Notes: generated from the letters alone by a model not told the origin. Counted from the first letter of the stretch, positions 2,061 through 32,657 are shown. The stretch: 64,000 bases of DNA from Acutalibacteraceae bacterium (GCA_045546915.1 JAZQDU010000008.1:34291-98290), one strand, 5' to 3'. Numbers and translations are program-made.

Positions 2061-2861
2061 ATGCACCCTATAGTTGATTGTCACTGTCATATATACCCCG
2101 AAAAAATTGCCTCAAAAGCCGTAGAAAGTATCGGAAAATTTTACGATATTCCTATGGTTTGTGGTGGCACTGTTTCGGACATGATTAATGCCGAAAGAAA
2201 AGCAGGGGTTACGCATTGTATTGTTTTTTCGGTTGCAACTAAACCTGCACAGATTCAATCTATCAATAATTTTATCGCAGGAGAAGTGAAAAAATCGGAC
2301 GGGTTTATGACGGGACTCGGCACTTTGCACCCGGATAGCACCGATGTTGAGGGTGATATTGAACACCTTATTTCATTAGGGCTTAAAGGTGTAAAATTCC
2401 ATCCAGATTTTCAAAAGTTCGCAATAGACGAAGAACGTGCCGTTAGAATTTATGAAATTTGCGACAAAAAGGGCTTGCCTGTACTTTTTCATACAGGGGA
2501 CAGCCGTTATAAATTTTCTAATCCCGAAAATGTAGAGCCGATACTTAAAAGATTTAAAAATCTTACAGTAATAGGCGCTCATTTGGGCGGTTGGTCAATT
2601 TGGGAAAAGGCTGTTGATACTTTGAGTAAGTACGACAATTTTTATGTAGATTGTTCGTCGGCACTTTATGCGATAACACCCGAAAAAGCCAAAGATGTAA
2701 TAAGAAAATACGGCGCTAAACGGGTAATGTTTGCTACCGATTATCCAATGTGGAACCCTAAAGAAGAACTTGAACGTTTTTATGCTTTGGGGTTAACAAA
2801 GGAAGAAAATGAGCAAATTCTTTATAAAACCGCAAAAAAAGTATTCAATTTATCGATTTAA
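2061..2861 (+). CDS. Amidohydrolase-family (TIM-barrel metal-dependent) hydrolase
   Basis: ATG at 2061 follows GGGGTGG. The N-terminus is HPIVDCHCHIYPE (HxH metal motif), with later ..FHPDFQ.., ..FHTGD.. and ..FATDYP... The 2010 start in the ORF track overlaps the upstream gene. Confidence 0.7.
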   Translation: MHPIVDCHCHIYPEKIASKAVESIGKFYDIPMVCGGTVSDMINAERKAGVTHCIVFSVATKPAQIQSINNFIAGEVKKSDGFMTGLGTLHPDSTDVEGDIEHLISLGLKGVKFHPDFQKFAIDEERAVRIYEICDKKGLPVLFHTGDSRYKFSNPENVEPILKRFKNLTVIGAHLGGWSIWEKAVDTLSKYDNFYVDCSSALYAITPEKAKDVIRKYGAKRVMFATDYPMWNPKEELERFYALGLTKEENEQILYKTAKKVFNLSI

Positions 2862-2875
2862 AGTGAAATAAATGC

Positions 2876-2904
2876 TTGACAAATTGAAAATTTGAGCGTA
2901 TAAT
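2876..2904 (+). promoter_or_regulatory. Sigma-A type promoter (TTGACA-17-TATAAT)
   Basis: TTGACA at 2876-2881, an exact 17-nt spacer, TATAAT at 2899-2904. It lies directly upstream of the T-box leader. Confidence 0.75.
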
Positions 2905-2910
2905 ACAGTA

Positions 2911-3190
2911 AAATCTTTAAAGGCTATGACGAAGACGGAGAATTTTTAGTTCTCACAGAGAGTCGGGGATGGTGTGAACCCGACAGAATGAAAAGTTCAA
3001 TCCCATCACTTCCGAGCCGAAGACCTGAACGTTTTTATTAGTAGGCGTCTTCCGTGACTGCTACGTTAGTGCATAGGATTTGTCAGAATCCGAAGTGGCG
3101 TTTTTACGCAATTTGAGTGGTACCGCGGGTACGAATAGTTTGTTCGACTCGTCTCAAAGAAAACCTTTGAGACGAGTCTTTTTATTTTTC
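2911..3190 (+). promoter_or_regulatory. T-box riboswitch leader, predicted specifier AUC (Ile)
   Basis: Stem I base is GGCUAUGACGAAG (2922-2934) paired with CUUCCGAGCC (3009-3018), a GA/K-turn. AG bulge CAGAGAGUCGG, distal loop GGUGUGA, T-box motif AAUUUGAGUGGUACCGCG (3110-3128) and a terminator are present. The 3' side of the specifier loop reads ..CCC AUC A|CUUC, with the codon at 3005-3007. Confidence 0.85.
3146..3190 (+). terminator. Intrinsic terminator of T-box leader 1
   Basis: GACTCGTCTCAAAG / CTTTGAGACGAGTC 14-bp stem followed by TTTTTATTTTT. It sits 3' of the T-box motif and 5' of the RBS. Confidence 0.85.
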
Positions 3191-3208
3191 TTGAAAGGAG
3201 AAACCAAA

Positions 3209-5476
3209 ATGAGTACAAAAAACACAATGACTGAATTATCCGAGGTTGCATCGCGAATTAAGGAGATGCGCGAGATAATGGGTTGGACGGCAGCCGAAAT
3301 GGCCGAAAAGACCGAGGTGACCGAAGAAATTTATAATATGTACGAAAGTGGTGAGGATGACCTTCCGTTCTCGTTTATTTATAAATGTGCTAAGGTGTTT
3401 GATATTCAGATGACACAGTTGCTTGAAGGTAAAACAGCAAGACTGTCATCGTATACTGTCACAAGAAAGGGTCAAGGACAGACCACTGTTGATGAGGATG
3501 GCATTGTTATACGCAATCTGGCTCCTAAATTTAAGGATAAAATCTCCGAACCATACATGGTACGTTATGAATATTCGGCAGAGCTTCAAAACCGCCCCAT
3601 TCATTTGACAACCCATTCAGGTCAGGAGTTTGACCTTGTTTTGGAAGGCTCCTTGAAGGTTCAGGTTGGAGAACATACTGAGGTTCTCAATGAGGGCGAT
3701 AGTATTTATTACAATTCTTCAACACCCCATGGTATGATTGCCGTTGGCGGTAAGGACTGCGTTTTTTGTGCAGTTGTTCTTCCCGGTGAGGAAACTGAGG
3801 AGCAGACCGTTACTAAAAGTATTGCAAGGGCTCGTTCAACGCAAACTCTCGTTTGTGAGAAGTTTGTTAAGGCAGAAGAGGACGAAAACGGATGTTTGAA
3901 ATCTATCGAATTCCCTAATAAAGAAACTTTTAACTTTGGTTTTGATATAGTAGACGGTATCGCTGAAAAATATCCCGAAAAATTAGCGATGATTCATGTT
4001 GACAAAAATATGACCGAGCGTAAATTTACGTTTGCTGATATAAAGAGAGCGTCTTCGCAGGTTGCTAACTATTTTGCATCACTTGGGATCAAAAAAGGCG
4101 ACCGCGTAATGCTCGTTCTTAAAAGACATTATCAGTTCTGGTTTTCTATGGTAGCATTGCATAAATTAGGTGCAATAGCAATTCCTGCTACACATCAGCT
4201 TAAAGACCACGACTTTGAGTATCGCTTTAATGCAGCAGGTGTTTCGGCGATTGTTTGTACCTCGGATGACGATGTTTATAAAATTGTAGATGTAGCGCAA
4301 GCAAAATCTCCCACTCTTAAAACCAAAATTTTGGTTGGTGGTAGCGCTGAAGGTTGGCACGATTTTGATGCTGAATACGGTAGGTTTTCGGGTAAGTTTA
4401 ATCGTACTGAAGATTCATCGTGCGGTGACGAAGCTGCTTTGATGTTCTTTACTTCGGGCACTACCGGTAATCCTAAAATGGCTTGCCATAAGCATACCTA
4501 TGCGTTAGGTCATTTTGTTACCGCTAAATATTGGCATTGTTGCGAACGTGAGGGATTACACTTAACCATTTCCGATACAGGTTGGGGTAAATCTCTTTGG
4601 GGTAAACTTTACGGTCAGTGGTTGTGCGAGGGGGCAGTCTTTGTATATGACTTCGACCGCTTTAATGCTGCCGATATTTTACCAATGTTTGCAAAATACA
4701 ATATCACTACCTTCTGTGCACCTCCTACAATGCTCCGTATGTTAATTAAGGAAGATTTGTCTAAGTACGACCTTTCTTCTATCCACCATATGACCACTGC
4801 AGGCGAGGCGTTAAACCCTGAAGTATTCCGCCAGTTTGAGGCTGCTACAGGCTTGCAGATAATGGAAGGCTTCGGTCAGACCGAAACAACACTTACTATA
4901 GCAAACCTTGTAGGTACTACTCCAAAACTCGGTTCTATGGGTAAAGCATCACCTCAGTACAATATTGATATAGTCGACCCTGACGGCAACTCGGTACCAA
5001 CGGGTGAAACGGGTGAGATTGTTATCCGCCTTGACGGTAATACTCCTTGCGGACTGTTTAAGGAATATTATCTTGATGACGAAAAGACAAACGAGGCAAT
5101 TTATGACGGTATGTATCATACAGGCGATACCGCATGGCGTGACGAGGACGGTTATTTCTGGTACGTAAGCCGTATAGATGACGTTATTAAGTCTTCGGGC
5201 TACCGTATTGGACCTTTCGAAATCGAAAGCGTAATTATGGAATTGCCGTATGTTTTAGAATGTGGTGTTTCGGCGGCACCTGACGAGGTTAGAGGTCAGG
5301 TTGTAAAGGCAAGTATTGTGCTTACAAAGGGTACCGAACCTACCGAGGAACTTAAAAAAGAAATTCAAGCTTATGTTAAAGAGCATACGGCACCGTATAA
5401 GTATCCGAGGGTTGTTGTTTTCCGTGACGAATTACCTAAAACTATAAGCGGTAAGATTCAAAGAAATAAACTTTGA
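3209..5476 (+). CDS. Fusion protein: XRE-type HTH + cupin domain + AMP-forming (medium/short-chain) acyl-CoA synthetase
   Basis: AAGGAG at 3195-3200 precedes the ATG at 3209. The N-terminus has an HTH (IKEMREIMGWTAAEMAEKTEV..) and a cupin (HSGQEFDLVLEG..GDSIYYNSSTPHGM). The synthetase part has FFTSGTTGNPKM, GFGQTETT, YHTGD, SSGYRIGPFEIE and PKTISGKIQR. Confidence 0.88.
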   Translation: MSTKNTMTELSEVASRIKEMREIMGWTAAEMAEKTEVTEEIYNMYESGEDDLPFSFIYKCAKVFDIQMTQLLEGKTARLSSYTVTRKGQGQTTVDEDGIVIRNLAPKFKDKISEPYMVRYEYSAELQNRPIHLTTHSGQEFDLVLEGSLKVQVGEHTEVLNEGDSIYYNSSTPHGMIAVGGKDCVFCAVVLPGEETEEQTVTKSIARARSTQTLVCEKFVKAEEDENGCLKSIEFPNKETFNFGFDIVDGIAEKYPEKLAMIHVDKNMTERKFTFADIKRASSQVANYFASLGIKKGDRVMLVLKRHYQFWFSMVALHKLGAIAIPATHQLKDHDFEYRFNAAGVSAIVCTSDDDVYKIVDVAQAKSPTLKTKILVGGSAEGWHDFDAEYGRFSGKFNRTEDSSCGDEAALMFFTSGTTGNPKMACHKHTYALGHFVTAKYWHCCEREGLHLTISDTGWGKSLWGKLYGQWLCEGAVFVYDFDRFNAADILPMFAKYNITTFCAPPTMLRMLIKEDLSKYDLSSIHHMTTAGEALNPEVFRQFEAATGLQIMEGFGQTETTLTIANLVGTTPKLGSMGKASPQYNIDIVDPDGNSVPTGETGEIVIRLDGNTPCGLFKEYYLDDEKTNEAIYDGMYHTGDTAWRDEDGYFWYVSRIDDVIKSSGYRIGPFEIESVIMELPYVLECGVSAAPDEVRGQVVKASIVLTKGTEPTEELKKEIQAYVKEHTAPYKYPRVVVFRDELPKTISGKIQRNKL

Positions 5477-9046: not shown

Positions 9047-10108
9047 ATGGCAGAAAAAGTACTTATGAAAGGTAACGAGGCTATTGCAGAGGCCGCTATC
9101 AGAGCAGGTTGTATGCATTACTTTGGTTATCCTATTACTCCGCAGACCGAAATTGCGGCTTATATGGCTAAAAGAATGCCTAAAATCGGCGGTGTATTTC
9201 TTCAGGCCGAGAGCGAAGTTTCGGCTATTAATATGGTTTATGGCGTTGCAGGTACCGGATACCGTGTAATGACTTCTTCGTCAAGCCCCGGTATTTCGCT
9301 TAAAGGCGAGGGCATTTCATACCTTGCCGGTAGTGACCTCCCTGCACTTATCGTCAATGTTCAGCGTGGCGGCCCCGGTCTTGGTGGTATTCAGCCTTCA
9401 CAGTCTGACTATTTCCAGGCAACTCGTGGCGGTGGACACGGTGACTATCATATTCTTGTTCTTGCACCTGCATCGGTTCAAGAAATGGCAGATATGACCG
9501 CAAAGTGTTTTGACCTTGCCGATAAATACCGTATGCCTGCTATGATTTTGGCAGACGGTACAATGGGTCAGATGATGGAACCGGTTGAACTTCCTGAACC
9601 TACCGAATACAAAAAGGAAAAAGATTGGGCGGTAACCGGTACAAAATGTGAGCGTAAACACAATATTATAAACTCTCTTTATCTCCAACCTGATGAACTC
9701 GAAAGAACTAACTTCGAGCGTTTTGAGCGTTATAAGCAGATTGAAGAGAACGAGACCATGTACGAAGAGTTTATGATGGAGGATGCCGAGATTTGCGTTG
9801 CAGCGTTCGGCATTGCTGCACGTGTTTCTAAAAACGCTATTATAGCAGCAAGGGCAGAGGGTATTAAGGTTGGTATGATTCGCCCGATTACTCTTTGGCC
9901 GTTCCCGAAAAAGCCTTTCTTAGAGGCAGCCGACAAGGTTAAAGAATTTATCTCGGTTGAACTTTCAATGGGTCAGATGATTGAAGACGTTAAACTTGCC
10001 ACTGAGTGCAAAAAGCCCGTAACTCTTTGCAACCGTACCGGTGGTATGATTCCCGAACCCGAGCAGGTGCTCGAAGCAATCAGAAAAGCAGCAGGAGGTA
10101 ACAAGTAA
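9047..10108 (+). CDS. vorB: 2-oxoacid:ferredoxin oxidoreductase alpha subunit (VorB-like, 3-methyl-2-oxobutanoate dehydrogenase (ferredoxin) type)
   Basis: N-terminus VLMKGNEAIAEAAIRAGC..FGYPITPQTEI is typical of OFOR alpha subunits. GAGGTG RBS. Substrate class is inferred from the T-box context, not from sequence alone. Confidence 0.8.
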   Translation: MAEKVLMKGNEAIAEAAIRAGCMHYFGYPITPQTEIAAYMAKRMPKIGGVFLQAESEVSAINMVYGVAGTGYRVMTSSSSPGISLKGEGISYLAGSDLPALIVNVQRGGPGLGGIQPSQSDYFQATRGGGHGDYHILVLAPASVQEMADMTAKCFDLADKYRMPAMILADGTMGQMMEPVELPEPTEYKKEKDWAVTGTKCERKHNIINSLYLQPDELERTNFERFERYKQIEENETMYEEFMMEDAEICVAAFGIAARVSKNAIIAARAEGIKVGMIRPITLWPFPKKPFLEAADKVKEFISVELSMGQMIEDVKLATECKKPVTLCNRTGGMIPEPEQVLEAIRKAAGGNK

Positions 10109-27763: not shown

Positions 27764-29818
27764 ATGAGAAGAATCACAGTTACTGTTGGCCAACATGGTG
27801 ATGCTTGGGCTGATCAAAAGCAAAAACTGGGGTTTTCTGGCGAACATAATGCTGTTCAGATAGTTTTTTCTTTTAAAGACGAAGCATTTCTACACTTTTG
27901 CGGTGCCGAATATTATCGAGTGTCGATTGACGGAAATTACAGTGAAAAACTGTATTTACAAGATGGCGAAGTTAGTTATACAGTGCCTCAGTCGGTAATG
28001 AATTCACCCTCGGTAAACTGCCAACTTATAGGTTATATTGAGGAGGCAGGCTCTCTGTCGCTTATTGCCAAAAGTTCGGTTGTTGAACTTTTGGTTGATT
28101 TTTCTGAGACACCAAAATCGAAAATCGGGCAGGATAACGATGTTTTAGAAAATGCAATAGCCTTATGTAGTAATGCTGCCGAAAAGACCGCATTTGATGC
28201 TGAATTTGTATCACAAAGGACCGAGCAGGTGATAAATGTAGCTCATTCGGTAGAATCGAATGTGGCAAATGCACGTCAATACAGTGTGTCTGCAAAGGCT
28301 TCTGCTAACGAGGCTAAGGGTTGGGCAACTAAAGCGGAAACTTCTGCTACAGAGTCTTTGAGTTATTCGCTTGATGCAAGGCAAACAGCAGAGTCGTTAG
28401 GGGATGTTGCCGATTGTGTTTTTGCAAGAAAATCCGGTCAAGACATAATTATTGATGACATTTCACCTATACCTCATAATATAAAGGTCAAGTTGTCAGG
28501 TGAAAACAGATTGCTTGCAACTGTTTACAAAACCGGTAAAAATCTGCTTATTTATCCATATACTCAGGTGAATTACACATCAAACGGTATATCTTTCACT
28601 GCAAATACTGACGGTTCAGTTACTCTTAACGGACAAAACAATGGTGAAGGCGCAAGCATGTTCTACTTTTTTAAGAGCGGTAGTACAAATATTGTCACTT
28701 CACTTGACAGAGGTGTTTATATCGGCTCGATAAAGCCATCGATTTCAGGTGTTGCGATAGGTGCGGTAACAGAGTCGGATGTTAACATTAATTTCTCGAA
28801 TTGCAAAGCGCTTGTGGATGATACTATTTTTAAATCGTTGTATTTGGGTGTTGAGAGAAACAATCAAACTTATTTTGATAATGTGACGATATATCCCATG
28901 ATTGAGCGAGGCTTTAACCCTACTGCTTATGAGCCTTATGTTGTGCCACAAAGTTTTCAACCGGATGAAAATGGTAATATTGAGGTGCCGAGCCTTTGTC
29001 CTACAACAAGGTTACATGTTAAGATAAATGGTGTGAATATTGAGGCTTACTATCATCGTAAGACGAATAAGGTGTTAGAAGAACTTGTGCTCAAAGGCGT
29101 TGCGTCGGGTAATAACGTGCTGCTTACCGATATTGCCGAGACCGAGCATGATATTAAGGTTACTTTGTCGGGTGATGGTTGTGACACTGCTACGCTTTAT
29201 CAAAGCGGTAAAAATTTGTTTGATGCTTCGGTAGTGAAAAATTATAACAATAAAGGAATCAAGGTAGATTATATTCCAAAATCCGATTGCTTTGTGATAA
29301 ACGGTATTTCAACCGGTGAGGATTATACAAGATATGAGATTAATATACCCTACAAATCAGGTAAAACGTATTTTGCTACTGCTGAGGTTTTAGGGGGTTC
29401 TGTATATGTTCCTACAGGTAAGAATTCGTATTGCATGTTCGGTAATGAAAAGAATAACAGTTTAAAAAATCTAATTAATCTGTCGTTAAGAAATTCAACT
29501 AAAACTGCGAGTGCAACCATAACCGACCACGTTCTTAATCGAGTTTGGTTTTATATTGGAGCAGGCGTTGAGTTTAAGAATTATATTGTTCGTATCCAAC
29601 TTGAAGAGGATACTGCTACTGAACATCAAAAGTATATAGAACCCATTGCAATTAATCCTAATTCAGACGGCAGTTTTACAGTTCCGAGTTTATATCCTGC
29701 AACCAAACTTTATACCGACAAAGAAGATGTCGTTATAACAGCGGAGTACAATCGAGATTTAAGTAAGGTTATAGGAAATCTTACAAACGCAATAATTTCA
29801 TTGGGAGGTAATGTATAA
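27764..29818 (+). CDS. Phage tail fibre / receptor-binding protein with two tandem homologous C-terminal modules
   Basis: The N-terminus resembles baseplate-upper-protein types. An Ala/Ser-rich coiled segment (..ASANEAKGWATKAETSATES..) follows. Then come duplicated ~220-aa modules. Confidence 0.65.
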   Translation: MRRITVTVGQHGDAWADQKQKLGFSGEHNAVQIVFSFKDEAFLHFCGAEYYRVSIDGNYSEKLYLQDGEVSYTVPQSVMNSPSVNCQLIGYIEEAGSLSLIAKSSVVELLVDFSETPKSKIGQDNDVLENAIALCSNAAEKTAFDAEFVSQRTEQVINVAHSVESNVANARQYSVSAKASANEAKGWATKAETSATESLSYSLDARQTAESLGDVADCVFARKSGQDIIIDDISPIPHNIKVKLSGENRLLATVYKTGKNLLIYPYTQVNYTSNGISFTANTDGSVTLNGQNNGEGASMFYFFKSGSTNIVTSLDRGVYIGSIKPSISGVAIGAVTESDVNINFSNCKALVDDTIFKSLYLGVERNNQTYFDNVTIYPMIERGFNPTAYEPYVVPQSFQPDENGNIEVPSLCPTTRLHVKINGVNIEAYYHRKTNKVLEELVLKGVASGNNVLLTDIAETEHDIKVTLSGDGCDTATLYQSGKNLFDASVVKNYNNKGIKVDYIPKSDCFVINGISTGEDYTRYEINIPYKSGKTYFATAEVLGGSVYVPTGKNSYCMFGNEKNNSLKNLINLSLRNSTKTASATITDHVLNRVWFYIGAGVEFKNYIVRIQLEEDTATEHQKYIEPIAINPNSDGSFTVPSLYPATKLYTDKEDVVITAEYNRDLSKVIGNLTNAIISLGGNV

Positions 29819-30006
29819 TGTTTGTTCTCGCACAGTTTGTTAAAAAAGGTCTTTTAGATGCTGTTGGTAAAATGGCAGATTATCAGGTTATTCTTAATTC
29901 GGTGGGTTGGTTTGAAAAGGGAGTGCTTACCGAAGGTGACCTCAGGGATATTGAGACCGCTATTGACAATACAAAAACCGCAGATATAGAAGTTACGGAG
30001 GCATAG
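29818..30006 (+). CDS. XkdX-like small phage protein
   Basis: 62 aa, positioned directly after the tail fibre (start overlaps its stop). It contains ..W...G.LTEGDL..I.., as in XkdX-family proteins. Confidence 0.45.
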   Translation: MFVLAQFVKKGLLDAVGKMADYQVILNSVGWFEKGVLTEGDLRDIETAIDNTKTADIEVTEA

Positions 30007-30007
30007 T

Positions 30008-30295
30008 ATGTCGGTGGCGTTAATATCCGCCGCATCGTCTGTTGTTGTGGGAATTCTTTCTCTAATAGGCGTAGTTATTACCAATAAACAGTCCCATCAA
30101 AAGGTTGCTCATAAACTTGAAACAGCACAGGCTGTAACCGATACAAAACTTGAGGAACTCACAAGAGAGGTAAGAGCCCACAACGATTTTGCTTTAAGGA
30201 TACCTGCCATAAAGGAGCAGGTATCCTTTTTAAGGGAAGATATCAAAGCGGCAAACAATCGCATACAAACACTTGAAATGTACCACCGACAGTAA
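30008..30295 (+). CDS. Phage membrane-anchored coiled-coil protein (XhlA-like lysis accessory)
   Basis: N-terminal TM helix followed by a heptad-like coiled coil. It sits between the tail fibre and the endolysin. Confidence 0.4.
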   Translation: MSVALISAASSVVVGILSLIGVVITNKQSHQKVAHKLETAQAVTDTKLEELTREVRAHNDFALRIPAIKEQVSFLREDIKAANNRIQTLEMYHRQ

Positions 30296-30306
30296 GGGGG
30301 AAATTA

Positions 30307-31047
30307 ATGATAAAACAGTATGAAAAAGGAAAAGCAAAGTCTGTTTCAACCAATTTTAATTCCAAAGAGTTCGATTGCCACGGCAAAAATTGTTGCGATG
30401 TAACCTTAATTGATGAAAGTTTGGTGACAAATCTACAAAAAATCCGTGACCACTTTGGTGCTGCGGTAGTTATAAATTCAGGATACCGTTGTAAAAAACA
30501 CAATAAGTCGGTGGGCGGGGCGTCTAAATCCAAACATCTTGATGGCATGGCAGCCGATATCACCGTTAAAGGAATAAAACCCATTGAGGTAGCACAATTT
30601 TGTGAAAGTATAGGTATTAAAGGTATCGGTCTTTACGGTTGGGGTTGCCATATTGATACAAGAACAAAAAAAGGTTTTTGGGAGTCGGACAAGCAGATTA
30701 AAGTTGCAACCTTTATAGAAAACGAGGGGGTTGTTTCGGTACACGAGTGGAAAAATGCTGCCGAAAAAGACGGGTTTTCATTTGGCAATTCTGTAAGTGA
30801 TAATTGGGATGACAAATGCGAAATTGTAGCAAAAAAAGCGGTGTGCAAAAGAAGAATAGGCATCTATAAGTACAAAAACCTCACTAAAACTGTGCAGATG
30901 GCAGTAGGTATTAAAGGTGACGCTGTAGACGGAAAATTTGGTAAAGAGACAAAGTGCGCAGTGCAAAAATGGCAGAGTTTAAAAGGACTCGAACCGGATG
31001 GTATCGTAGGTCTTAAAACATGGAAAAGGATTTTAGGGGTAAAGTGA
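30307..31047 (+). CDS. Endolysin: zinc peptidase M15 (LAS-type D-Ala-D-Ala carboxypeptidase fold) with a C-terminal peptidoglycan-binding domain
   Basis: SGYRCKKHNKSVGGASKSKHLDGMAADI ... GCHIDTR. C-terminus GKFGKETKCAVQKWQSLKGLEPDGIVGLKTW matches the PG_binding_1 pattern. Confidence 0.8.
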   Translation: MIKQYEKGKAKSVSTNFNSKEFDCHGKNCCDVTLIDESLVTNLQKIRDHFGAAVVINSGYRCKKHNKSVGGASKSKHLDGMAADITVKGIKPIEVAQFCESIGIKGIGLYGWGCHIDTRTKKGFWESDKQIKVATFIENEGVVSVHEWKNAAEKDGFSFGNSVSDNWDDKCEIVAKKAVCKRRIGIYKYKNLTKTVQMAVGIKGDAVDGKFGKETKCAVQKWQSLKGLEPDGIVGLKTWKRILGVK

Positions 31048-31238
31048 TGAAAAAACTTTTAAGCCGATTCAAGTCGTGGGCGGTATGGATGTCAATAGGC
31101 GCGCTTGTAGTGTTTTGTGCTAAGGAATTTGCAGGTGTTGATATCAAAGATTCGGTCGACGGTTTTCTCAATGTGCTCTTGCCGTTGCTTGTGGCGTTTG
31201 GCATTGTGAATAATCCTACCGATAAAAACCATTTTTAA
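31047..31238 (+). CDS. Phage holin
   Basis: The ATG at 31047 overlaps the endolysin stop (ATGA). 63 aa with two TM helices and a polar NNPTDKNHF tail. Confidence 0.65.
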   Translation: MKKLLSRFKSWAVWMSIGALVVFCAKEFAGVDIKDSVDGFLNVLLPLLVAFGIVNNPTDKNHF

Positions 31239-31433: not shown

Positions 31434-31522
31434 GGAGAGGTATCGAAGTGGTCATAACGAGGCGGTCTTGAAAACCGTTTGGGGGCAACCCCACAAGGGT
31501 TCGAATCCCTTCCTCTCCGCCA
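31434..31522 (+). tRNA. tRNA-Ser (anticodon UGA)
   Basis: GGAGAGG acceptor stem pairs with CCTCTCC. Anticodon loop is CTTGAAA. It has a long variable arm, a GGTTCGAATCC T-arm and an encoded CCA. Confidence 0.9.
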
Positions 31523-31572: not shown

Positions 31573-31663
31573 GGAGTAGTACTCAAGTTGGTGAAGAGGC
31601 GCCCCTGCTAAGGGCGTAGGTCGGGTAACCGGCGCAAGAGTTCAAGTCTCTTCTACTCCGCCA
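31573..31663 (+). tRNA. tRNA-Ser (anticodon GCU)
   Basis: GGAGTAG acceptor stem pairs with CTACTCC. Anticodon loop is CTGCTAA. It has a long variable arm, an AGTTCAAGTCT T-arm and an encoded CCA. Confidence 0.9.
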
Positions 31664-31697: not shown

Positions 31698-31743
31698 TTT
31701 AGTTTTAAATGTTTTAGAACTCTTGCGCCGGTCGGTGCAGGCG

Positions 31744-31804
31744 TTGAACACGACCGGCGCCTGTGGTGGAAAAGGGGACAATCACAGAACCGTCCCCTGA
31801 TTGT
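31744..31804. repeat. 61-bp direct repeat, copy A
   Basis: TTGAACACGACCGGCGCCTGTGGTGGAAAAGGGGACAATCACAGAACCGTCCCCTGATTGT is identical to 32356-32416. It contains an internal AGGGGAC...GTCCCCT hairpin. Confidence 0.95.
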
Positions 31805-31815
31805 TCTATAATACC

Positions 31816-32277
31816 TTATAATTTCATTGCCATTTCAGATACTGTATTCCATCTTGTATAATCACTTTGAATTTGCTCATATGTTTTTCCAGAGATAGAA
31901 CACCTGTTCAATGATAATTTCAAATTAAACAAGTCCACCATCTTTCTGAACTCGTTTTTTCGGAAGCGATCATTCATAAATATCTCACATTTACACAACA
32001 AGTCATCCGCAAATCTCTCAAGAATAACAGCTGCAGCACCATACATATCGTCACTATTCGTGCTATACAGCGCAATTTCAAATAGAGAATCGAAACTTGG
32101 AAGAGGATCTTTATAAAATCCATTTTCTTTTCCCCAGCCAAAGTCGTATAAAGATGCTTTTATCCAAATTGAATTGTCATTTGGATTAATTGCCGTATTC
32201 TTATCTTTTAATATAAACCCAAAATCAGAAGCGTTGCATTTATTAAATCTCATGCTCATAACAAAATAGTTACCCAT
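31816..32277 (-). CDS. Hypothetical protein (possible orphan immunity-type gene), flanked by the 61-bp repeats
   Basis: AGGAGG at 32285-32290 lies 7 nt before the ATG at 32277. 153 aa, AT-rich. The longer ORF-track version (to 32397) reads through the repeat. Confidence 0.55.
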   Translation of the reverse strand: MGNYFVMSMRFNKCNASDFGFILKDKNTAINPNDNSIWIKASLYDFGWGKENGFYKDPLPSFDSLFEIALYSTNSDDMYGAAAVILERFADDLLCKCEIFMNDRFRKNEFRKMVDLFNLKLSLNRCSISGKTYEQIQSDYTRWNTVSEMAMKL

Positions 32278-32329
32278 CTTCATTCCTCCTATGGCATAAT
32301 TTGTATTAATCCACTTTGTGAAACAAAGG

Positions 32330-32354
32330 CAATCAGGGGACGGTTCTATGATTG
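32330..32354. repeat. 25-bp inverted repeat, left arm
   Basis: CAATCAGGGGACGGTTCTATGATTG is the exact reverse complement of 32567-32591. It differs by 1 mismatch from the 3' parts of the 61-bp repeats. Confidence 0.95.
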
Positions 32355-32569
32355 ATTGAACACGACCGGCGCCTGTGGTGGAAAAGGGGACAATCACAGA
32401 ACCGTCCCCTGATTGTCTTATTATAACCTGTTACGTCTTGCCCTGTAGAAACATAACCATCTGCATTAATCCACCGACCGATCTCAGGATCGTAATAACG
32501 GCTGGATACATAATAGAGACCAGTCTCAATATCGTAAACATACCCGCGATAACGTAAAGGATTTGTCAA
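32333..32569 (-). pseudogene. RHS repeat-associated core fragment (orphan; no upstream RHS body and no toxin domain)
   Basis: The translation [37 protein letters not shown] matches the conserved RHS/YD core end. A stop lies immediately upstream, there is no ATG, and the 3' ~90 nt are repeat sequence. Confidence 0.7.
32356..32416. repeat. 61-bp direct repeat, copy B
   Basis: Identical to 31744-31804. Confidence 0.95.
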
Positions 32570-32591
32570 TCATAGAACCGTCCCCTGATTG
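32567..32591. repeat. 25-bp inverted repeat, right arm
   Basis: CAATCATAGAACCGTCCCCTGATTG. It is followed by TTCAGGCGTAGAACACGACCG, which resembles the sequence preceding and starting copy A, giving an end-to-start junction. Confidence 0.9.
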
Positions 32592-32657
32592 TTCAGGCGT
32601 AGAACACGACCGCAAGAGAAAAAGTTACTTTTATCTTGCGACAAAGAGGAACATTCT

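Follow-up and report, generated by a model that had tools for sequence, protein, structure and literature searches.

The stretch of DNA considered here (the window) comprises 64,000 nucleotides of an Acutalibacteraceae bacterium (GCA_045546915.1, JAZQDU010000008.1:34291-98290). At positions 31700-32640 a single small gene and a fragment of an RHS polymorphic-toxin core are enclosed by direct and inverted repeats, and the locus raises the question of whether these repeats belong to a recombination system of their own, as an earlier note on this DNA had proposed, or to something more general. The locus is probably an 815-nt islet, located between tRNA-Ser(GCT) and a MATE transporter gene, which consists of RHS toxin-locus debris and an intact immunity gene and which is bounded and split by four repetitive extragenic palindromic (REP) elements of a REP-associated tyrosine transposase (RAYT) family.

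The repeats were recomputed and, as arrangements, were found as they had been described. The direct repeat (31744-31804 and 32356-32416) is identical at 61 of 61 positions, its identity begins at TTGAAC, and it extends imperfectly to about 70 nt at 96% identity. It brackets one small gene on the minus strand, an intact open reading frame (ORF) at 31816-32277 with AGGAGG situated 7-8 nt ahead of the ATG. The inverted repeat is a perfect reverse complement over 26 nt (32330-32355 and 32566-32591) and contains, on the minus strand, an RHS-core-like ORF matching TIGR03696, which has a stop codon immediately upstream and reads on into repeat sequence; no second RHS motif was identified anywhere in the window. 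A single 25-nt core, CAATCAYAGAACCGTCCCCTGATTG, is common to all of these repeats and is located at 31779 (plus), 32330 (minus), 32391 (plus) and 32567 (plus), with no other copy in the window. Allowing up to three mismatches, the core gave four matches in the window and none in 100 dinucleotide-preserving shuffles, while the 34-nt non-core part of the repeat gave two matches and none in the shuffles; the repeats are far beyond chance expectation. The "inverted repeat" is two REPs facing opposite ways, and the "61-nt direct repeat" is one REP together with 35 nt of native flank, locally duplicated.

The 25-mer is a REP-type element which is paired with a RAYT. It was searched for by exact matching in one genome per species and was found in at least 119 stretches, which belong to about 90 species-level assemblies (counted by accession prefix), with several copies per assembly across the assemblies listed; the counts are lower bounds. 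Among the matches listed the hosts were mostly Acutalibacteraceae and other Clostridia metagenome-assembled genomes (MAGs) from herbivore guts, together with one cultured isolate, and the sequences flanking the 25-mer vary between sites. No match was found in viral contigs. Five of the 164 copies (3%) fell inside ORFs of at least 150 codons, compared with 70% for positions drawn at random from the same loci. This extragenic placement, together with the inverted pairs that surround a RAYT-type transposase gene, identifies the 25-mer as a REP. A specificity of these REPs for RHS loci was ruled out, since an RHS core motif was present in 4 of the 119 loci listed; the shared unit is a widespread REP-like element unrelated to toxin loci, a result that the earlier note had named among those that would refute its reading.

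The stem of the REP is CAATCA..TGATTG, and the conserved 13-nt loop was also found with three other complementary stems (AAGACA/TGTCTT, AACACA/TGTGTT and ACACAA/TTGTGT). Left and right stem types are associated, as is clear from the counts; the shuffle test of stem covariation was weak (22 observed, mean 13.6, maximum 26), a few stem types being dominant. Rfam gave no match at the gathering threshold for the repeats in the window or in seven REP loci, and the REP doublet described below produced sub-threshold generic hairpin matches alone. Two further observations concern the surroundings of the REPs. Short tandem partial copies of the 3' half of the element (..CCCCTGATTGGTC..) trail 37 of 152 REPs, for example in L011, L024, L035, L049, L075, L081 and L114, and a conserved element of about 70 nt (aaaaccgcccctgattttaaattttaaaa..ccttgatatacaagggtttacggct) precedes 16 of the 152.

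The transposase gene encodes a 248-aa HUH/Y1 protein and is flanked by inverted 25-mers at 12 of the 14 loci, one about 44 nt ahead of the start codon and the other about 5 nt past the stop codon. The protein matched Pfam Y1_Tnp (IS200-like) at 1.6e-15, and its top NCBIfam model was NF047646 REP_Tyr_transpos. Its HUH motif (NHIHLL) and tyrosine motif (YIHQNP, of the YxxxNP type) were invariant, and its sole match among PDB sequences was E. coli TnpA_REP (4ER8, E 0.006). A diverged RAYT in locus L132 is flanked by a REP with the co-varied stem AAGACA/TGTCTT. A plasmid search recovered no close relative of the RAYT (matches below 40% identity only), and the RAYT family cognate to this REP is chromosomal in Acutalibacteraceae and related gut Clostridia. 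In L057 (450-5700) a RAYT gene (2618-3364) was observed within an array of RHS C-terminal (RHS-CT)/immunity orphans, with REPs between the modules; one RHS-CT ORF begins right at the downstream REP of the RAYT gene.

REPs and their RAYTs (TnpA_REP), the bacterial interspersed mosaic elements (BIMEs) and the REP-doublet hairpins known as REPINs have been described from Enterobacteria and Pseudomonas (PMC2817692, PMC3116915, PMC5581495; PDB 4ER8). The present elements resemble them in being short extragenic palindromic repeats with an HUH/Y1 gene between two inverted copies, in forming inverted doublets that fold into long hairpins, in having stem variants that track diverged transposases, in being chromosomal and not carried on phages or plasmids, and in lying often just past stop codons. 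They differ in their host, which is Clostridia; the REP surveys consulted list no Firmicutes, and one RAYT survey states that Group 1 RAYTs are "also found in Clostridia", with nothing further. They differ also in the repeat, which has a stem of 6-7 bp and a conserved 13-nt loop, carries no terminal GTAG and holds CGTC inside the loop instead of a tag next to a stable small-loop stem. The missing GTAG/CGTC tag concerns the classical super-families (PMC3733652) and not the REP/RAYT relation itself. In addition, the 25-mer is identical across the roughly 90 listed species-level assemblies although their RAYTs are only 54-96% identical, and the RAYT, of 248 aa, carries a C-terminal extension. The proteins of L078, L109, L051, L003, L092, L028 and L132 have about 248 aa, against 165 aa for chain 4ER8_A, and their conserved C-terminal extension, which ends GISIRQISRLTGVSYY(I/V)VQK and is helix-turn-helix-like, was assigned no Pfam domain.

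Native and window-specific sequence were separated by comparison with L140, a related species with 82-87% DNA identity and the same gene order. The features of the locus are as follows, in window coordinates.

31434-31522, plus strand: tRNA-Ser(TGA), identified by ARAGORN and Rfam RF00005
31573-31663, plus strand: tRNA-Ser(GCT), identified by ARAGORN and Rfam RF00005
31663-31700, no strand: bidirectional terminator-like hairpin past the tRNA pair, conserved in L140
31717-31778, plus strand: native tRNA-derived palindromic region, homologous to the REP-free copy 1 of L140
31779-31803, plus strand: REP A, CAATCACAGAACCGTCCCCTGATTG, 12 nt past the immunity stop codon and at the left edge of the 815-nt window-specific segment
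31816-32277, minus strand: intact gene for a predicted 153-aa RHS immunity protein (orphan) with an AGGAGG ribosome-binding site, assigned from homologues
32289-32327, minus strand: 3' remnant of the cognate toxin gene, FVSQSGLIQIMP and stop, matching ..GVVSQSGLIQIMP and stop in L133, L147 and L149
32330-32354, minus strand: REP B' (T-type), abutting the toxin remnant; serves as left arm of the perfect inverted repeat (26 nt) and pairs with REP B in the REP doublet
32355-32390, plus strand: 36-nt spacer of the REP doublet, an A followed by the 35-nt native flank (31744-31778) repeated without a mismatch
32391-32415, plus strand: REP B (C-type), which pairs with B' as a hairpin
32420-32563, minus strand: RHS core fragment of 48 codons (TIGR03696), both ends cut by REPs
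32567-32591, plus strand: REP C (T-type), with TT the right edge of the window-specific segment
32594-32612, plus strand: X copy 2, CAGGCGTAGAACACGACCG, native, homologous to copy 2 of L140
32658-34025, minus strand: MATE efflux transporter gene (Pfam MatE, 4.3e-44), on the same strand as the islet gene and upstream of the islet

The alignment with L140 runs to 31778 and resumes at 32594. The intervening segment of the window (31779-32593, 815 nt) begins with REP A and ends with REP C and TT, and its place in L140 is taken by 164 nt in which the 3' part of tRNA-Ser(GCT) occurs for a second time, along with its terminator, a palindromic arm and X (CAGGCATAGAACACGACCG). The native palindromic region of the window is made up of a left arm (GAACTCTTGCGCCGGTCG), X copy 1 (CAGGCGTTGAACACGACCG, 31738-31756) and Y, which extends up to ..GGAAAAGGGGA; a DNA hairpin (GCGCCGGTCG/CGACCGGCGC) was predicted within it, and its last 35 nt (31744-31778) are the non-REP portion of repeat copy A. 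The native sequence that follows the immunity stop codon ends at GGTATTATA, before REP A. L140 carries X-Y without a REP, plus a second copy of X. The L140 counterpart of the flank (TAGAACACGACCGCCGCCTGTGGCGGAAAAAGGGA) is REP-free, which shows that the TTGAAC..GGGGA portion (35 nt) of the 61-nt repeat belongs to the native flank. With the shared core being a widespread REP and the other 35 nt being native chromosomal flank, the proposals of site-specific exchange and of a dedicated invertible or excisable segment were not upheld. The earlier note had also seen the end of the repeat unit joined to its beginning at 32567-32612. The resemblance itself is real, in that 32591-32612 matches 31735-31756 over 22 nt at 91%, but this is not a circle or tandem junction, because X is already duplicated in cassette-free L140; what is seen is a REP abutting native sequence. 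Repeat copy B has the T variant of copy A and not the A variant of X copy 2.

REP B and REP B' together form a hairpin of -30 kcal/mol (z = -8). Inspection of the sequence between REP B' and REP C revealed no likeness to RAYT leader or tail sequences, that is, no RAYT remnant. Beyond X copy 2 lies CAAGAG and then a hairpin 3' of the MATE gene, whose product is 98% identical to its L140 orthologue. On the other side, bases 31628-31643 of tRNA-Ser(GCT) reappear inverted at 31717-31732 (16/16). In L140 about 125 nt (3' part of tRNA-Ser(GCT), terminator and palindromic arm) are directly duplicated at 9385-9735, and this duplication, taken with the inverted tRNA bases of the window, resembles a trace left by earlier integrase-type events. 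Immediately ahead of the tRNA pair the window (27764-31238) contains a phage-type lysis remnant, with a 95-aa PHROG protein, an M15 endolysin with a peptidoglycan (PG)-binding domain and a 72-aa holin, which is also conserved in L140; the preceding 684-aa ORF (27764-29818) had no Pfam or PHROG match and is absent from L140.

The origin of the islet gene was deduced from its relatives. The 153-aa protein has 141 unnamed homologues, and those with a retrievable context (L122, L124-L139, L144, L147-L152 and L158-L167) are encoded 11 nt past RHS toxin genes or in RHS-CT/immunity arrays. The arrangement of a full toxin followed by the immunity gene was seen in L124-L139 and L147-L152, and in the window the gap after the retained toxin stop codon is likewise 11 nt. 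The DNA from 32326 to 31807 is 99% identical to L133-L135 and 96% identical to L132, in all of which the toxin is complete; L132 encodes an RHS protein of 2362 aa. The 12 codons and stop directly upstream of the immunity gene are the last codons of the L133-type toxin, DNA homology to the toxin-linked copies begins at 32326, and REP B' stands immediately before. All the rest of the toxin C-terminal domain is gone from the window, where 128 nt, mostly REP doublet, correspond to about 676 nt of toxin-coding DNA in L132. The homologues beside full toxins and the retained toxin tail identify the gene, by sequence comparison, as a predicted RHS immunity gene orphaned by toxin loss, much as the earlier note had suspected.

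The RHS core fragment matched TIGR03696 Rhs_assc_core (E 1.7e-12; 47.7 bits against a cut-off of 32.5) at positions 14-55 of the 76 in the model. It starts exactly past REP C and ends ..TGYN exactly where REP B begins. No full-length rhs gene lies upstream of it in the window, the upstream gene being the MATE transporter. The 153-aa protein had no match in Pfam, NCBIfam, PHROGs or PDB sequences, and an exact look-up gave no identical record. Its AlphaFold2 (AF2) model (pLDDT 92) shows a small beta sheet and a five-helix bundle, for which a Foldseek search of the PDB found no match among solved structures. For the C-terminal domain of the cognate toxin, neither Pfam nor NCBIfam nor the PDB offered a family.

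Orphan rhs-CT/immunity modules and orphan immunity genes are known (PMC3150448, PMC3967940, PMC10539506). The islet is like them in keeping a core fragment and an intact immunity gene that has a ribosome-binding site of its own; in other genomes the same allele stands beside complete toxins, and arrays are present in relatives (L122, L057, L144). Unlike them, it has no full-length rhs gene upstream in the window and has lost nearly all of the toxin domain, its breakpoints coincide with REPs, and it occupies a tRNA-Ser-linked hot spot that has a phage-type lysis remnant on one side and a MATE gene on the other.

The same immunity gene was found with REPs elsewhere. REPs lie directly past its stop codon in L132, L147, L150, L120 and L153. 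At 1980-2800 of L153 (also in L154, L155 and L156) a lone immunity gene is located between spo0A and trmO, inside a perfect inverted pair of ACACAA/TTGTGT REPs; four toxin codons are left, and a remnant of a RAYT 3' end (GVSYYVVQKL and stop) and another REP occur just upstream. This cassette was assembled independently from several samples. At 3130-4450 of L120 an orphan immunity gene (89% identical) adjoins a phage holin/amidase cassette, with PIG-L at the site; an AAGACA-type REP abuts 17 toxin codons, a degenerate REP lies past the stop codon, and a RAYT tail remnant with a REP is situated about 700 nt upstream. Toxin-less orphan copies without any REP are present in L142/143/146 and L144/145. 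No shared target motif was seen at the three REP/toxin-tail junctions (window, L153 and L120).

These cases bear on the idea that a REP-bounded immunity cassette was captured or moved by a RAYT acting in trans, the window representing a REPIN with cargo between the REPs at 31779-31803 and 32330-32354 and with the perfect 35-nt repeats (31744-31778 and 32356-32390) as its target duplication. The segment 31779-32355 does end in inverted 25-nt REPs (24/25 complementary) within perfect 35-nt native direct repeats, and relative to L140 the whole islet starts and finishes with a REP. Moreover, the same gene is REP-bracketed in L153-L156 and L120, each with a RAYT 3' remnant just upstream, and RAYT genes adjoin RHS-CT/immunity modules in L057 and L132. 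However, the junction (12, 17 or 4 toxin codons), the downstream endpoint and the type of REP stem all vary among the three cases, which points to independent formations, and their junctions have no target motif in common. There is no flanking duplication at L153, and IS200/IS605-type transposition produces no target duplication. The REPs around RAYT genes have the opposite relative orientation, and orphan copies free of REPs exist. The elements share with IS200/IS605 single-strand transposons the HUH/Y1 enzyme and hairpin ends recognised as structure, but their ends around the transposase gene are inverted and not direct, the repeats vastly outnumber the gene, and there is no sign here of the gene itself moving. 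We regard mobilisation of this cassette as unlikely, and we are equally doubtful of the broader proposal, that in Acutalibacteraceae RHS immunity genes are time and again captured or cut out by REP pairs and a RAYT in trans, as cassettes placeable at unrelated sites, with the window, L153 and L120 as three products. We read the three cases instead as recurrent REP-associated truncation and not as a single spreading element, in a process which may be active.

A recombinase flipping the 210-nt segment between the 26-nt arms, and thereby toggling a promoter toward the immunity gene, would make the locus an inverton; like invertons and shufflons it has a perfect inverted repeat (26 nt) around a segment of about 200 nt upstream of a gene, and a promoter-like TCTACA-18-TATAAT (32449-32420, minus strand) inside the segment is aimed at the immunity gene. 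The perfect identity of the arms is expected because they are ordinary T-type REPs, generic genome-wide repeats the same as hundreds of copies elsewhere and usually preceded by T. No recombinase or invertase was found within about 10 kb (judged by the Pfam domains of window ORFs and of the genes in syntenic L140), inversion restores no reading frame, and promoter-like sites numbered 10 against 4.7 expected, which makes the promoter weak evidence. There was no contig with the alternative orientation, but both metagenome scans at the Joint Genome Institute (JGI), one with the toxin-tail/REP junction and one with the native left arm, returned nothing whatever (0 matches each). Such a switch is very improbable. 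An assembly chimera, in which a short-read metagenome assembler joined different organisms at REPs, was judged just as improbable. Every switch between segments of different affinity does fall at a REP, and the immunity module shares 99% identity with contigs of other samples, but the flanks no more than 82-87% with the nearest relative; yet 815 nt further on the path is back in the syntenic chromosome that it left, so that several consecutive misjoins would be required, the repeats (25-61 nt) are below the usual final k-mer (related MAG contig names carry k141), and a similar REP-bracketed cassette at spo0A/trmO was obtained from several samples independently (L153-L156). The least credible reading takes the 61-nt unit as the recombination site of a cassette array, integron-like or otherwise site-specific, at a polymorphic-toxin locus. 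GTTGAAC fits the degenerate attC R' consensus GTTRRRY and the repeats bracket single genes, but L140, where no cassette is present, already has 35 of the 61 nt as native flank, a comparison which contradicts this reading, and the remainder is a REP found genome-wide in about 90 assemblies among the matches listed. Furthermore, no integrase is present in the syntenic neighbourhood, so that intI beside an attC with paired R''/L''-L'/R' sites is not what is seen here, and intact RHS loci with the same module have no such unit.

Several points weigh against the interpretation of the islet as REP-split RHS debris. The NF047646 score of the RAYT (77 bits) is slightly below the 80-bit cut-off, and no RAYT gene was found in the 64-kb window, where all four REPs are concentrated at a single locus. 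A lone REP is a weak hairpin (6-7 bp stem, 13-nt loop, z -1 to -1.6), unlike classical REPs. With L140 being only 82-87% identical in DNA, the direction of change is not fixed. The interpretation does not account for the 61-nt duplication, which may have arisen by gene conversion, REP-associated rearrangement or target duplication. The linker of the RHS fragment is unlike the linker ALVDQSSVLGYN of the closest toxin genes, and because the linkers differ the fragment and the toxin tail may come from different genes. Finally, the bracketing of the same immunity gene by REPs in two further contexts (L120 and L153) hints at a process more active than passive decay.

We nevertheless favour RHS debris bounded and split by REPs, for which the following order of events is suggested. 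The toxin portion would have been lost, with deletion or insertion endpoints at REPs, and the immunity gene, if expressed, would have been retained as protection from the matching RHS toxin of neighbours. The REPs would serve passively as substrates for a RAYT whose gene lies elsewhere in the genome, and would act as rearrangement hot spots and probably also as structural hairpins on the transcript, rather than as sites of a dedicated cassette recombinase.

Two known things, REPs and RHS module decay, meet at this locus and explain its architecture, and no new recombination system is needed. The REP/RAYT pair is a clear one in gut Clostridia, with an unusual small-stem, large-loop repeat, in a lineage from which such pairs have scarcely been reported; what is known of REP/RAYT biology comes almost entirely from Proteobacteria. 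An immunity gene that matches toxins of the same community type (herbivore-gut metagenomes) has been kept alone and is repeatedly bracketed by REPs. If cassette capture by REP/RAYT were true, toxin immunity would spread without the toxin; should REPs assist in removing toxins or in moving immunity genes, gut communities would have a new route to "cheater" immunity.

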